Shown: positions 2,402 through 22,151 of the stretch, in pieces
Layout: the number at the start of each line of letters is the position of its first letter
Numbering within the stretch: the stretch's first letter is position 1
Origin: a virus
Direction: 5' to 3' (one strand)
Length of the DNA stretch: 64,000 nucleotides
IMG/VR virus record: IMGVR_UViG_3300005673_000003
Location: 1-64,000 of that record
The notes under the pieces: generated by a model
Told to the model about the DNA's origin: nothing
The model's database searches: none
What the model saw: the letters and a program-made list of their open reading frames with translations, nothing else
Translations under genes and position numbers: made by a program

Positions 2402-4604
2402 ATGCACCCGAATTACATCAGAAAGGTCACGCCAAGAAAAGCGATGACCGAGAAAAACTTTGCTGCTATTGCAAGAGCGGTGATTGTGACCGAGAGCCGC
2501 ATTATATCTGTCCTAAAGTCAGGAGTGCCAAAGAGTTCTCAGCAGCTCCGGCACTATTGCTTCCAATGCTGCATCGAGCTGAAGGAAGAGCGGCGGGAGG
2601 AGTTTGAAACGCTAATGGGATACACGCTGGAAGATGGGGATGTACCAGCCATTGATCAGCCAAGAAGATCCCATTCCCATGCTTATGATGTAGCTCCAGC
2701 TCTCGATTATGACGGGATTCGCAAATTCCTGGAAGAGGCAGTAGAGCGGTATCAAACCTCTGCCCCCACTGCTGCTCAGCACTGCGATTGGCTCTATCGC
2801 AGACTTGCCGATCAGCCCAAAAACGTAACCTATTACGAACTGGAGAATATCATCAAGCTCAAGATGGATGGGAGCTGGAAAAACCCCCACCAGGCCGCAA
2901 ATCTCGTTTACCATCTACGGAATGATCTCAAGATGGGGCATTCCGTCACCCTACCATTCGATTTCTAATCAAATAATCAATCAATTTAATTTTGGAGGCT
3001 AATTATGATCGTTGGCGAATACCTGGAACATCATCCCGAAGCAGATAAGACAGCTCTGCTGCTCATCGATGAGCATCGCAAGGGTGATGAACCCTACTAC
3101 CTGGCAGAGCTAAAATTCTTTTTCCCAAAGATTGGAACTTTCACTATTACCCTTCGCAAGCAATCCAGTTCGCTGGATGGTGCCCGTCATTATGCTGTCG
3201 GGGTGCTGAAAGAGATTCGTAATGTCGGATTAGTTGACTGGCTGAATGCAGATATAGAGGAAGGCAAGCAAAAAGGAAGGAGTGCTGGATAATGCAACCT
3301 TTCTGCGCGTTTCAGTACGAAAAATTCTCCTATGCCCAGCTCCGTAGAGCTTACTTCGAGCTTGCCAAAGTGCAGAAGTCAAACGGGAAAGAGTTTACAT
3401 TCGGGCATGGAATTGGCTTTAATCGCTCAGAGAGAAGACTTAAGCGCGGTGCAGTTACGGTGCTGAAGCAGGGGCCGATCAAGTCAATCAGCGCTGGCGC
3501 GATCGTATTCATGCAAACGGCCTCCCCAGGAAGCAAGTCCTACATAGTAGGGCAGTTCAAATCATTTATGCCGGGAACTATCCATGACCGGATCTTCACG
3601 ACTGCCCCTGATTATGCATCCTCTGCAATCATGCGAATCCTATTCAGGATGCACCAGGATGGGAGCCATCCATCCTTAAACTTTTACCCAGATAGATCCT
3701 GGAAAGCTATCTCCCTCCACTAGGATGAGGGGCATAGAGAAGCAGTTAGCGCTTGTAAATCAATCAATTAATCGTTGGAGACATCATGAAAGACTTAAGT
3801 GGGTTACTAGAAGCAGAATGCAATACCGAGCCTGATTACCAGGAGCAGGAAGAGTGCAGGCCCATCCTCCCTGGCGATATTATCGAGCTTCAGATAGGCG
3901 ATGAAGTTGTCGAAGTCCAGTTATGCTCCTATGTTGCATCCGATGCAAATCTGGATATTCTTAGACGGTTAGCCGCTGTTGATATTCCGGTCGCGGAAGA
4001 GCATCGGGAAGTGTACGAGCGGCATTATCGAGGGTTAAAAGAAGATGGCATAGACATCTTTTCTAGTTACGCCTGCTGGCTATTCCTGAAGCGTAAAGCT
4101 GCGCTAGATGGGATAGCGAAGGAAAATGAAGAGCTTATATCCCAGGCTTCCCAAGTTGCTTAACTTAATACCTGTTCCCTATTGTAATCAAGTCAATAAT
4201 CAATCAATTCAAGGTACAGAGCTATGATGACTATGCGCAATTATCCAGAAGCGATCGCTACCGCTGCTGAAAAAGTAGCTGAGATAGATCTGGCAATCAC
4301 TCAGGCGAAAAGACTGCTTCACGAAATCGAGTCGGAGATAGATCAAGAAATAGCTTGCGAATCCAATCTGAAAAACGAATTACAGCGTAAAGCAGCCAGA
4401 AGCATAGCGATAGCAGCTCATCCAGATCATCGCAAGCTACTGCAAGCAATGGATAATAACACCTTCAATAAAGCAGTTGCAGCCGCTGAACTAGAGCGAT
4501 TGCGAGGTGAATTCGCTATCCTCAAACTGGAGGCAAAGGAACGTATCTCAGACAAGATGCGTTCTCTTGAAAACGGTGATCTGGTAGCTGTTAGCTTGAC
4601 CTGA
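2402..4604 (+). other. Operon of five hypothetical CDS (2402-2968, 3005-3292, 3292-3723, 3786-4163, 4224-4604 coiled-coil)
   Basis: Tightly packed, same strand, four preceded by the 12-mer repeat. Confidence 0.75.
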
Positions 4605-17877: not shown

Positions 17878-18624
17878 TCAGCAAACTAGCCGCCAGAAGT
17901 ATCCAGCGCATTCCTGCCCGTTTTTTACAGCTCTAGAGATTGATTTCTTGCAGATATGGTTAGCTTTGCCAGCCTTGGTAAGGCTTGGATATACAGCTCT
18001 ATCATCAGGAGCGTCCGGCTTCCAGCGCTCGACCTTAGCAGCCATACTCTTTTTGATCGGAGCAGGCTGAGCAGCTTGGATGACTTCGAGAATATCATCG
18101 CCTAGCGCCCAGGTTAGCCATTCAAGATCAATATCGTGCATTTTGATTTCTAGTGGATTCGAGGCTACCCACTCTCTAAAGTCTTTATTAGAGATAGCCG
18201 CTCGTTTAGATGTGATGCGGCTGCAAGGCAACCCAAGTTTAGCGATCCACCGTTTAACGACTCCAAGAGACACTCCCAGATTTCTGGCAAGGCTTGCTAT
18301 CGAATAGTTGTCATAAATAGCTGATCTATGACAGCCAAGCTGATGGATACGGGAGCTGATGCTCTCTTCTGAGCGAATGGGCCATCCATTTTTCTTGCCA
18401 AGTCGCCGGATAGCTTTACAGATAAGCTTGAATGGCTTGGAGCCGGATAGCTCCTCAATCAGATCATCTTCTTCTTTGCGCCAAACCTGACATCCTGATT
18501 TTGTCGCGCTTAAATTGTGAGCGCATTTACTAGAGCAGGTTCTGCGCTTGTAGGAGAGGGTTTCAAAAGGGTTTTGGCAATACTCGCAAATTCGAGTGGC
18601 AGGCTTTGCTCGTCTTCTTGGCAT
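17878..18624 (-). CDS. Multi-domain DNA-binding protein (Zn finger, HTH, NUMOD1-like)
   Basis: CEYC...CSSKC; SIASLARNLGVSLGVVKRWI; VYPSLTKAGKANHICKKSISRAV. Confidence 0.7.
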   Translation of the reverse strand: MPRRRAKPATRICEYCQNPFETLSYKRRTCSSKCAHNLSATKSGCQVWRKEEDDLIEELSGSKPFKLICKAIRRLGKKNGWPIRSEESISSRIHQLGCHRSAIYDNYSIASLARNLGVSLGVVKRWIAKLGLPCSRITSKRAAISNKDFREWVASNPLEIKMHDIDLEWLTWALGDDILEVIQAAQPAPIKKSMAAKVERWKPDAPDDRAVYPSLTKAGKANHICKKSISRAVKNGQECAGYFWRLVC

Positions 18625-18633
18625 AGCTCCCCC

Positions 18634-18966
18634 TTAAACTGGAACCAGAATTCCGAGGGAGCGCACCAATGCCTCAGCAGTCCGCTTTTGGCAGACCGGG
18701 CAAAGCAGCACGCGATCGCTCACATAGTCATAGACAATGCCAATCTCTAAACCCTTCCAAGTCTCTGCTGCGACCAGACTCCGAGCTTTGAAGACAGCGA
18801 GCTTGTAATCATCTCGCTCTTTTAACGCTTGCTCCAGAACAAATGCTGGGACAGTCAAGGGAGTGGGATGAGACTCTGTTTCGTAACGAGCTTGGGCACG
18901 CAATACGCCAGCCATTAACTCTTCAGCGAGGATGTCTGTGAATCCTGAAGACCATTGCATATTCAA
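18634..18966 (-). CDS. Hypothetical protein
   Basis: 12-mer and GGAG RBS upstream. Confidence 0.65.
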   Translation of the reverse strand: MNMQWSSGFTDILAEELMAGVLRAQARYETESHPTPLTVPAFVLEQALKERDDYKLAVFKARSLVAAETWKGLEIGIVYDYVSDRVLLCPVCQKRTAEALVRSLGILVPV

Positions 18967-19002
18967 TATCTCCGGCTAAATTGATTGATTATTGATGAGA
19001 AG

Positions 19003-19170
19003 CTACTGGCCGAGTTCTTTGACGTAGAACTGACCATCTTTAACCACAAGAGCTTTGCTGCCGCTGAGGAATTGGCACGCAAAAACCGTCAGGTAGATGA
19101 AGAATGCAATTCCTACGATCGCTCTAACTACTGCTAGCGTGAAGACGATTGGACTTTGATCTTCGCCCAT
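19003..19170 (-). CDS. 55-aa single-pass membrane protein, absent from the ORF track
   Basis: MGEDQSPIVFTLAVVRAIVGIAFFIYLTVF...; GGAGG RBS and 12-mer at 19183. Confidence 0.65.
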   Translation of the reverse strand: MGEDQSPIVFTLAVVRAIVGIAFFIYLTVFACQFLSGSKALVVKDGQFYVKELGQ

Positions 19171-19241
19171 AATTACCTCCGAAATCGATTGATTATTGCT
19201 TGATTAGCAGGCTACCCACCAGTGAGCGGCAGGTAGCTCAT

Positions 19242-20545
19242 TGAGTCTCCGGGGGTTGAGGAGAACGCCCTCCCACGCCTGCGGAAGCAGGCAGAGTCTA
19301 ACTTGCATGATGAAACCTCCATGAGTTGTAGGACAAAAACTTGATATCTTCCGGTTTGGCGTTTTGGCAGAGCCGCTTACCAGTTTCCAGGGAATGCAGA
19401 CTGACGCGTCCCTTACTAGAACCGCCGATATAGACCGTTCCATACTTGGGGTACTTAGCAATGCCACCCCGCTTGAACCCCATCGATAATGTGCCGCCAT
19501 AAGGGGAGCGGATATGTCCCTTAGCGTGTTCAAGGCGGTGCAATTGCCGTCTGTGGAATCGCAGCGGAATAAACTCCATGACCGTTTGATTCTCTGGCTT
19601 AGGTTCACCACCCGCGACCAGATACGCTAGCACCCAGGAATCGACGCAATGAGCGTGAAAATCGGTAGATAGCTTATTTTTAAGCTTCTTTAATCCCAAC
19701 TCTTGACGGGTTTGATAGGTATGTTCAAACCCGTCAAACAGCTCCAGGGTTGCCAGCCTGCGGCACTCCGAATAAAACCACAGCTTCCCAACCTCCAGTG
19801 GGCTGAATGAAGTATTCCATCGTCTTGCACCCTTCCAAGTTCTAGCTTTCACATCCTCCACCGCTATGCGGGAAACAGGAAACAATTGCGCCAGGAATTT
19901 AATCAGCCGTAACTTTGCTTGCCATCTAGCTTTGGTGGAAGGAGGTAGAAATTCACCTCTGTCGTAGTTCTTTTTAGGGGAACGACAGGGTGTTTTACGG
20001 AATCTTCTAGCCCTCCGCATATTCGTGCTGACCTCCTCTGCGTCCTTGACCCAATCTACCGCATGGGACTGGATGTTGAAATAGGTATGGGCTTGAGACT
20101 TGACGGTGAACGCCTCGCGCTTGGAGCCTGGATCGACACCAATACAAATGGGTTGGAGGTGACGCGATGATGGTTCAATATTGAGTCGAATACACCATAC
20201 CCCTTTCTTCCAAAATGGAGTAGCTTTACCACTCTTAACCCACCTATCCGCCCGTTGGGGCTTAGTAGGCATTAGCGGTCGGTTATTGGAATCAAAAACT
20301 GGAACAAACTTTTGCATAGCGGTAAGCCTAAATATGTACATCCCTTCGTCTCTGACCAGCCAAACAATTCCAAATTAGGGAGGCGTTTGGTGCTTGTTAG
20401 GATGCCACTCCCACTGGTTCAGTTGTATCTCGAAGACCTAGACTAGACAACCTTTTAATTGCTTAGAACCATTAGCTTTGGTTCGATCCCGCTCGTAGAG
20501 CTGGACTATCCGCAAACCCCTAGCTTTAGCTACGGGGTGGCTGAC
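19242..20545 (-). mobile_element. Non-autonomous IS200/IS605-family IsrB (OMEGA) element
   Basis: End hairpins (GCCTGC-GGAA-GCAGGC ~19277-19292; CCCCTAGCT-TT-AGCTACGGGG ~20517-20537); TCAT on the left flank and CTGAC at the right end; no tnpA; ends ambiguous by about 4 nt (TGAG on both sides). Confidence 0.8.
19298..20341 (-). CDS. isrB: IsrB RNA-guided nickase (likely start MQKF at 20317)
   Basis: PLMP domain, RuvC-I GVDPG, RRARRFRK bridge helix, RuvC-II VEDV, RuvC-III HCVDS; ~340 aa and no HNH domain. Confidence 0.88.
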   Translation of the reverse strand: MYIFRLTAMQKFVPVFDSNNRPLMPTKPQRADRWVKSGKATPFWKKGVWCIRLNIEPSSRHLQPICIGVDPGSKREAFTVKSQAHTYFNIQSHAVDWVKDAEEVSTNMRRARRFRKTPCRSPKKNYDRGEFLPPSTKARWQAKLRLIKFLAQLFPVSRIAVEDVKARTWKGARRWNTSFSPLEVGKLWFYSECRRLATLELFDGFEHTYQTRQELGLKKLKNKLSTDFHAHCVDSWVLAYLVAGGEPKPENQTVMEFIPLRFHRRQLHRLEHAKGHIRSPYGGTLSMGFKRGGIAKYPKYGTVYIGGSSKGRVSLHSLETGKRLCQNAKPEDIKFLSYNSWRFHHAS

Positions 20546-20565
20546 TGAGCTACTTCCTTGATTTG
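20330..20565 (-). ncRNA. omegaRNA (5' guide from the flank plus scaffold)
   Basis: Structured non-coding region directly upstream of isrB starting GTCAGCCACCCC; guide predicted from 20565-20546; 3' end approximate. Confidence 0.72.
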
Positions 20566-20577
20566 ATTGATTATCGC

Positions 20578-20634
20578 CTTACATCATCATTATGTCTCAT
20601 GATGGGGGAAAGGCGTATCCGTATTTCTACTCAT
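20578..20634 (-). promoter_or_regulatory. Bipartite phage promoter, copy 3 (points into the omegaRNA)
   Basis: Operator 20617-20634 (imperfect), 18 nt, GAGACATAATGATGATGTAAG on the minus strand. Confidence 0.78.
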
Positions 20635-20646
20635 CTTGCAAAAGTA

Positions 20647-20676
20647 TTGACAATTTTCTGGGGTATCAGCTATAAA
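20647..20676 (+). promoter_or_regulatory. Divergent sigma70-type promoter
   Basis: TTGACA-N18-TATAAA followed by TGTAAG and the 12-mer at 20687. Confidence 0.65.
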
Positions 20677-20713
20677 TGTAAGCAGCAATCAATCAATTCT
20701 CTCGGAGGTAGAT

Positions 20714-21112
20714 ATGGTAACGATTCAAGGGATTCAGCAAGCGCTCGATATTATCGCTCTTCTGCCGATTGGGGCAGCATTCGCCCTCTTTGGGTGCCAC
20801 ATGGTCAACTGCTGGAATCGAGCGGGTCAGGTACAGGTAGCCCAGGTTGCGCTCATGCCGGAGCAGGAAGATAGCGATAATTTGGCAGATGAAGCGGAAG
20901 CATTGACCCAGCAATGGGCAGCGATGGCAATGGAGTCAGCAGAAGCTACCCTGACGGTCGAGATCAAACAGGAGGCTATCAGCTACGACGATATGAATAT
21001 CACTCAGCTACGGAAGGAGTGCAAGTCTTTGGGGATTTGCTGGAAGGATGCTCATGGCAAAGGGAAGCATCTGAAGCGTGCCGAAATCCTAGAGGCGATC
21101 GCTGCTATCTAA
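20714..21112 (+). CDS. Membrane-anchored protein with C-terminal SAP/Rho-N-like domain
   Basis: N-terminal hydrophobic helix; YDDMNITQLRKECKSLGI...KRAEILEAI. Confidence 0.65.
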   Translation: MVTIQGIQQALDIIALLPIGAAFALFGCHMVNCWNRAGQVQVAQVALMPEQEDSDNLADEAEALTQQWAAMAMESAEATLTVEIKQEAISYDDMNITQLRKECKSLGICWKDAHGKGKHLKRAEILEAIAAI

Positions 21113-21331
21113 TCTAATCCTGGGAGGGGTTACCGCGCTCCTCCCAGTCAATCAATCAGTTCAATCGGAGGCGTTATGAACTACCAGCACTACTATGCCC
21201 AAATTCAATATCAGCAACGAATCATTCACGAACAGGGGAGAATCCCGCCCGAAATCGAAGTATTGATAGCAGTACAGAAGTACAGAATGAACCAAGCAAT
21301 CATCAAATCGTGAATTCGGGGAATCAATCGA

Positions 21332-21832
21332 TTGACGGGGAACCCAGCAATGCTGAATAGGAAAGATGAGGAAGCGGTGCCGCGAGTGGTTTACGTTTGG
21401 CAATGGGAGCAATGGTGGAGCATCCCAATTGATGCTTGGCTGGAGCTAGCATTGGAGCCAAAGTATTACAACCTGGATGAGATGGGGAAGCGAATCAAAC
21501 CGCCTTACAAAGCGGTTTGGAACGCTGGCTCTAAGGATTCCAGTCAAATCTCACCCAGGCCCGGAGTACTGATTGCAGTCATGCCGTGTGATTGGTCGGA
21601 GGATGACTGGAGGCTGCAAGCGGAGGAGCTATTGAAGCTGAATCAGGAGCTACTGCAGAGCTTCTTAGATGCCCTGGCAGAGCAAGGGAGCACCCGTAAG
21701 GCAGCGGCAGCGCTGGGATGCTCCCATGAGCTAATCAGCAAGCGGTTCCGCTTGCTGCCGGATAATCACCCATTAAAGGAGCGCTATCAAAAGTTTCAGG
21801 GGAAGCCAGGGAGGAAGAAAAAGAGCGATTGA
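21332..21832 (+). CDS. Hypothetical protein with C-terminal HTH
   Basis: GSTRKAAAALGCSHELISKR. Confidence 0.6.
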   Translation: MTGNPAMLNRKDEEAVPRVVYVWQWEQWWSIPIDAWLELALEPKYYNLDEMGKRIKPPYKAVWNAGSKDSSQISPRPGVLIAVMPCDWSEDDWRLQAEELLKLNQELLQSFLDALAEQGSTRKAAAALGCSHELISKRFRLLPDNHPLKERYQKFQGKPGRKKKSD

Positions 21833-22151
21833 GCCTGCTCTCAGAAATCAATTGATTAACTAAATCCTCCAGAATTGCAACTCTTTGCTTAAGGGTTGCA
21901 ACTTCCGTTTCCAGGGAGCCGGACTCCTCTCTCAGGAACGCTGCGATCGTCTGACGATCATCTTTCGCTAGCATCCTATCAAGCCTATCTAATCTGTCAC
22001 GCTGCTTCTCCGTGATATAGGATTGCCGTCCTATCCGTACAGGCTTGATGCCTATGTCACGCATTCTTCTCCAAACGCCGCTTCTAGCTACCTTGTAGCG
22101 TCTTACCAGGGTTGTAACTGCAACTATCGGCTCATCAGGCGAATCAGTCAT
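21735..22151 (-). CDS. Excisionase/MerR-like HTH protein with coiled coil
   Basis: VTTLVRRYKVARSGVWRRMRDIGI...SYITEKQ. Confidence 0.55.
   Translation of the reverse strand: MTDSPDEPIVAVTTLVRRYKVARSGVWRRMRDIGIKPVRIGRQSYITEKQRDRLDRLDRMLAKDDRQTIAAFLREESGSLETEVATLKQRVAILEDLVNQLISESRLNRSFSSSLASPETFDSAPLMGDYPAASGTAC

Follow-up and report, generated by a model that had tools for sequence, protein, structure and literature searches.

The IsrB protein of Desulfovirgula thermocuniculi (DtIsrB; PDB 8DMB) is served by an omegaRNA that is encoded directly upstream of it and carries the guide at its 5' end, and the TAM, on the 3' side of the target, is NTGA (PMC9581776). TAMs of the NTGA or NTG type have been measured for DtIsrB and for cyanobacterial IsrB proteins, the guide being 5' (PMC9581776). 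The cyanobacterial CwIsrB and DsIsrB, and K2IsrB from a viral metagenome, are active nickases with NTG-type TAMs, and K2IsrB shows that a virus-borne IsrB can function (PMC9581776). Most IsrB elements are non-autonomous (PMC13565253). The transposase TnpA and the nuclease IscB have one TAM in common, and donor joints are cut (10.1101/2023.03.14.532601); spread of such elements into co-infecting phages has been proposed under the name of 'non-restorative homing' (PMC13565253).

The DNA analysed here (the window, 64,000 nucleotides) is the first 64 kb of a virus record of 148,728 bp that is complete, with terminal repeats. Judged by its sequence, the segment 20545..19242 on the minus strand is an intact, non-autonomous IS200/IS605-type IsrB (ISC1) element without a transposase. 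The element is 1.3 kb in size and comprises an omegaRNA gene, a gene for a RuvC-only nickase of 339 residues and a 3' end of 56 nt; it is located just behind a promoter-like motif of a 149-kb cyanophage (Table 1). No match to TnpA (PF01797) was found anywhere in the 148.7 kb of the phage. Protein, RNA and ends all agree on an IsrB OMEGA element with the limits that had been proposed in the first-pass annotation. It is another example of a known family, and the insertion of an IsrB element into a cyanophage at ATGA has already been published.

Table 1. Features of the IsrB element and its flanks (window coordinates)
Feature	Position	Strand	Basis
Bipartite promoter-like motif (putative promoter)	20576..20630	-	Recurrence in the window and genome; conservation in the related phage contig L056
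Gene-start 12-mer copy in the leader, upstream of the guide	20563..20574	-	Genome-wide motif count
Predicted guide, last 20 nt of the 5' flank	20546..20565	-	Directly 5' of the conserved start of the scaffold
omegaRNA scaffold	20318..20545	-	GTCA start, then first hairpin, up to the isrB start codon; covariance model, alignment
isrB, 339 aa	19298..20317	-	ATG at 20317, stop at 19300-19298; PDB 8DMB, Pfam RRXRR, fold search, motifs
Element 3' end, 56 nt	19242..19297	-	Alignment with relatives; folding
Predicted TAM and transposase target motif, ATGA	19238..19241	-	Start of the 3' flank; ATGA in 39 of 42 loci
Right palindrome arm TGAGCTAC (19240-19233) and intergenic hairpin (19237-19211)	19211..19240	-	Sequence; folding; hairpin of L056

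The open frame of the element runs from 20341 to 19298 on the minus strand (347 codons); in relatives the start codon is the second in-frame ATG (20317), from which the protein has 339 residues, 8 fewer than from the ATG at 20341. By sequence the protein matches DtIsrB (8DMB) with an E value of 3.4e-35, and IscB structures far more weakly. RRXRR is the sole Pfam family in the frame (E 5e-28, at a cut-off of E up to 1), and the NCBIfam IscB model, which the frame matches with its N-terminal half alone, scores it under the cut-off. The PLMP motif, nearly invariant among relatives, is present at the N-terminus, and the RuvC residues D70, E162, H231 and D234 (numbered from the ATG at 20341) are present, align with the motifs of DtIsrB and are conserved in 30-31 aligned relatives. 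A search for similar folds with an AlphaFold model (mean pLDDT 73) gave 8DMB as the top match (E 2e-23, TM 0.65/0.67, 337 columns against a chain of 328 residues), with IscB structures ranked below it; an HNH domain is absent, as judged by Pfam and by the 339-residue length. The C-terminal 40 residues have no sequence alignment to DtIsrB, and a conserved R-x-x-Q (R323, Q326) matches the DtIsrB reader residues in spacing. Sequence and model together identify the frame as an intact IsrB, for which nickase activity is predicted.

The ends of the element are sharply defined. Read along the minus strand, the left flank runs up to GTAGCTCA, whose last base is 20546, and the element opens with GTCA at 20545; it closes with ACTCA at 19242, and ATGA follows at 19241-19238. 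Because CTCA is present at both junctions, the cut can be moved by up to 4 nt without changing the rebuilt empty site. The conserved block opens at GTCA in all 41 other aligned loci used for the comparison of boundaries (40 cellular and one viral; 42 with the window), the sequence before GTCA being unrelated between loci, and ATGA immediately follows the last conserved base in 39 of the 42 loci, the window included, with ATAA in two and ATGG in one. These GTCA starts and ATGA-adjacent ends show that the 5' boundary, the guide taken from the 5' flank and the ATGA 3' motif had been read correctly in the first-pass annotation. Sharp ends at independent sites, without target duplication and with a conserved motif beside one end, are of the IS200/IS605 type, and by analogy with the working of that family ATGA would be counted as flank. 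The 5' subterminal hairpin is clear and covarying. At the 3' end, folding gives a clear hairpin immediately behind the stop codon and a second, with a TAAA loop in relatives, that is weak here; to go by the sequence, this weakness may impair TnpA-driven mobility. In the Microcoleus, Tychonema and Scytonema genomes G001-G005, the 3' end hairpin of IsrB elements (~47 nt) is present as dozens of solo copies per genome, which far outnumber the full elements.

An Rfam scan of positions 18000-22000 gave no match at E up to 1, HEARO (RF02033) being unmatched. As this omegaRNA matched none of the Rfam families, a covariance model was built for the purpose. A block of about 230 nt upstream of isrB is common to all the loci collected (7 viral and 41 cellular), and RNAalifold, applied to an alignment of 39 sequences, predicted 28 base pairs, of which 25 have compensatory changes. 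The covariance model (R1), made from 28 relatives with the window left out, matches 20545..20297 over its full length (model positions 1-237) with 95.4 bits and an E value of 5e-24. The match starts exactly at 20545, and the IsrB omegaRNA that had been proposed upstream of the gene is thus recovered. Within the predicted guide are a Shine-Dalgarno-like word, AAGGAAG, and the left arm of the palindrome, GTAGCTCA (20553-20546); the position of the guide is modelled on DtIsrB (PMC9581776) and its length of 20 nt is assumed. The omegaRNA of the element and the HEARO RNA of the IscB of the same phage have the first hairpin alone in common.

In the promoter-like motif, the upstream half (20630-20615) includes TACGGAT, and the downstream half, which ends at about 20577, includes a -10-like CATAAT (20594-20589); the predicted transcription start is at about 20582. 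Six exact copies of the downstream half are present in the window, compared to none in 100 shuffles, and four of the six have the TACGGAT half 19-20 nt upstream. Further copies of the motif are found elsewhere in the phage genome, and the other copies are followed by the gene-start 12-mer, a ribosome-binding site and a gene. Both halves are kept, with a different spacer, in L056, a related phage contig in which the flanking genes are 74-76% identical. Recurrence and conservation of the motif are good evidence for a functional promoter-like signal, and the bipartite promoter reported previously thus corresponds to a recurrent motif about 33 nt upstream of the element. The variant of the 12-mer that had been noted in the leader belongs to a set of 67 genomic copies, each with no more than one mismatch, and most of these copies are located 15-25 nt before start codons. 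Transcription beginning about 7 nt after CATAAT would start about 37 nt before the scaffold, so that a guide of 16-20 nt would need trimming or processing. On the plus strand, at 20640-20712, a sigma-70-like promoter (TTGACA, 17 nt, TATAAA-type) faces the opposite way, toward a 132-aa gene at 20714; it is kept in L056 with a diverged spacer, and similar TTGACA promoters recur in the genome.

With AAGGAAG on one side of the element and an ATG on the other, the insertion site resembles a gene start in its layout. Of 40 independent relatives, 29 have a frame of 60 codons or more beginning at the TAM's ATG, compared to 21% of control ATGA sites, and a Shine-Dalgarno-like word is present in the flank of 30% of relatives, compared to 12% of controls; this excess of frames and Shine-Dalgarno-like words over controls indicates that insertion at start codons is a habit of the IsrB family. 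In the window, the frame beginning at the TAM's ATG has just 9 codons, and the stretch between the promoter-like motif and a 248-aa gene differs between the window phage and L056; the site is thus variable, and as a gene start it is atypical.

The rebuilt empty site consists of GTAGCTCA, one base and TGAGCTAC, and the palindrome that had been claimed for it is real: 8+8 with a one-base centre, unique to this site among the loci compared. The palindrome score by the same measure is at most 4 in all other loci, from which it follows that the palindrome is not due to chance and is no family trait either. A search of the genome led to rejection of the palindrome word as a repeated phage motif. The hairpin at 19237-19211, which the right arm overlaps, has a homologue at the equivalent place in L056, with a different stem (compensatory changes) and a similar loop, and to judge by these sequences the palindrome more likely reflects phage intergenic structure than IsrB biology. 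The hairpin, which in L056 is at ~2612-2650, has the loop word CTC(A)CTGGTGG and is located just upstream of a gene-start 12-mer; the loop word is present once more in the phage genome, at ~83601 (G000:C1). On the opposite strand of the rebuilt site, the guide matches 8 contiguous and 10 of 20 positions, with TTGA following; nicking of both strands would thus depend on an 8-nt seed and appears unlikely. To our knowledge, nicking from an 8-nt seed has no precedent.

The cellular relatives of the window IsrB belong mostly to filamentous cyanobacteria (55-65% identity), those of Poribacteria being 46-49% identical; the nearest relatives of all are 64-67% identical, the best identity being 67%. 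In a phylogenetic tree, the window IsrB forms a deep branch inside the cyanobacterial IsrB proteins, whose sister group is a clade of Microcoleaceae with one viral sequence in it. Among 50,697 deposited phage records, only 9 have a gene for a relative, and six of the 9 are records of Microcystis phages; IsrB is therefore uncommon in phages, yet known there. The 6-kb neighbourhood of the element has no nucleotide match among deposited phages.

Several relatives are altered or misplaced. The viral contig L011 (2950-3100, compared with 2790-4100 of L005) carries an IsrB element shrunk to a miniature, in which the first omegaRNA hairpin is joined via short microhomology to the last ~55 nt of the open frame and the 3' end; as an internal deletion derivative that keeps both transposon ends, it was rejected as an empty site. 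The viral IsrB copy of L009 and L010 (~2800-3645) has an intact omegaRNA-like leader and lacks residues ~20-130, including RuvC motif I, and is probably dead. A 3-kb contig of an Aeromonas MAG (JBOFSK010000047.1) has a cyanobacterial-type IsrB element, 65% identical, within the Oscillatoriales/viral clade, and its binning with Aeromonas is probably an error.

The element-free sibling phages envisaged in the first-pass annotation were not encountered: the rebuilt 24-nt junction had no match in viral_contigs, and the 23-nt left flank had none in metagenome_contigs. L056, which is without IsrB, was rejected as an empty allele, being non-orthologous between the promoter and the 248-aa gene, and empty sites in Microcoleus were ruled out, the flanks of the locus L019 not being kept in three other genomes. 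Two neighbour genes of the element have no relatives in viral_contigs, and by comparison with PHROGs most of the neighbours are ORFans. For the 55-aa neighbour the sole homologue is the protein itself; its record lists a second contig, one in which this protein and the 132-aa neighbour are encoded in identical form.

The explanation that best accounts for the whole, with a probability of roughly 0.65, is entry by way of a host TnpA, expression of the omegaRNA by the phage, and nick-driven homing into element-free sites. During infection, TnpA of the cyanobacterial host would have inserted the element as a single strand beside ATGA, a route seen in experiments with phage Mic1 (PMC11237433), landing it 33 nt downstream of the promoter-like motif, between the Shine-Dalgarno-like AAGGAAG and the ATG. 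Given this position behind the motif, phage transcription would read through the flank into the scaffold and isrB, yielding an omegaRNA with the flank as its 5' guide. The complex of IsrB and omegaRNA would recognise the uninterrupted site by its guide match and ATGA and nick the non-target strand, whether the genome had lost its element or belonged to a co-infecting sibling that had always been without one, and replication and recombination with an element-bearing copy would then restore or copy the element. The occupied allele would be spared, because the guide match there precedes GTCA and not NTGA. As IsrB is a nickase only, the homing step, driven by a nick, is hypothetical.

A possible but considerably less probable explanation is that the element is a passive passenger, dropped by a host TnpA and persisting at a tolerated spot, with an IsrB that is useless for spread among phages; its position at a promoter and an ATG would then be due to the ATGA target motif and to selection against disruptive insertions. 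The observed jump of an IsrB element into Mic1 was a harmful accident (PMC11237433). Two collection scans gave no empty allele, and nucleotide comparison over 148.7 kb shows the element to be present in a single copy in the phage genome. With the closest relatives only 64-67% identical, the insertion is not demonstrably recent or spreading; the GC content of the element equals that of the phage, and the second 3' hairpin is weak. On the other hand, old as the insertion appears to be, the element has kept its open frame, its catalytic residues and its RNA fold intact, which suggests selection on the element's own function, and three different OMEGA elements in one phage of 149 kb are many for pure accident, given the rarity of IsrB relatives among deposited phage records.

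It is improbable that IsrB and its omegaRNA have been domesticated for the benefit of the phage, to damage competitor phages with an uninterrupted site or to regulate by binding DNA. The element does lie within a predicted transcription unit of the phage, one that follows the conserved promoter-like motif, and phage homing endonucleases are known to exclude competitors (reviewed in PMC13565253), but the guide has no other match in the phage, where the 8-nt seed recurs yet never with a longer match and NTGA, the guide is unmatched at the equivalent site of L056, and standard transposon ends have been kept. Finally, the suggestion that one guide directs nicks at the ATGA and TTGA strands of the palindromic empty site, and thereby a double-strand break, is very improbable. 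The opposite strand does have GTAGCTCA with TTGA after it, a TAM that DtIsrB accepts (PMC9581776); but the guide matches there at no more than 8 contiguous and 10 of 20 positions, known IsrB proteins were assayed with 20-nt duplexes (PMC9581776), no relative has such a palindrome, and the right arm belongs to a phage hairpin of which L056 has a version with another stem.

The homing explanation may extend to other loci of the same genome. The window phage has three OMEGA elements, all on the same strand, each with its 3' end adjoining NTGA. The second, outside the window (G000:C1 ~66358-67795, minus strand), is IsrB-like and of another subfamily, with a 386-aa frame at 67581..66422; its structured leader overlaps the end of the upstream gene, and its 3' end is followed by ATGA, the start of a gene of ~57 aa. 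The third (G000:C1 ~127363-128991, minus strand; L053) combines a HEARO omegaRNA (RF02033, 155 bits) with an IscB in which HNH motifs are present; by its insertion it separates a GGAGG-type ribosome-binding site from the GTG(A) start of a queE-like radical-SAM gene. A 32-nt stretch following the stop codons is 94% identical between the IsrB element (window 19268-19299) and the IscB element (G000:C1 127428-127459); its sharing by elements of different families suggests, from sequence comparison, a common transposase or recombination between elements.

Only tentatively can all three nucleases (two IsrB and one IscB), each beside an NTGA, two of which begin known genes, be regarded as being expressed from phage promoters and as acting as transposase-free RNA-guided homing elements that move between co-infecting phages. 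If this were true, a nickase would suffice for homing in a replicating phage genome. The locus is a well-defined natural case for RNA-guided nickase homing between phages, an idea that the literature has as a proposal: the guide and its TAM, the target site and a candidate promoter can all be read from the sequence, with the two further elements as possible internal comparisons. Beyond the question of homing, it is one more example of the IsrB family and of the family's start-codon insertion habit.

Among described systems, DtIsrB is the best match of the window IsrB both by sequence and by fold, and the two have the same domain order of PLMP, split RuvC without HNH, and C-terminal TAM-interacting domain, the last being putative in the window protein, as well as the upstream omegaRNA with 5' guide and the NTGA-type motif; they differ in that identity is ~30%, the scaffold is ~230 nt in the window compared to 262 nt for DtIsrB, and the window element is phage-borne. 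CwIsrB, DsIsrB and K2IsrB are likened to the window IsrB by their published description, the window protein nesting among cyanobacterial IsrB proteins. The TnpB and IscB nucleases of the IS605 family likewise have a guide from the flank, a TAM common to transposase and nuclease, and the uninterrupted site as target (10.1101/2023.03.14.532601; PMC13565253); the experiments on them concerned double-strand cutters in bacteria and on plasmids, whereas the window IsrB is a predicted nickase. The element that entered gp49 of the cyanophage Mic1 at ATGA came from the host, with ~200 nt upstream and ~59 nt downstream (PMC11237433), and the window element is similarly built, its isrB ATG being preceded by 228 nt and its stop codon followed by 56 nt. 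The insertion into Mic1 broke a gene and crippled the phage (PMC11237433), whereas the window element is located in a leader before a tiny open frame, where it appears to be old and tolerated.
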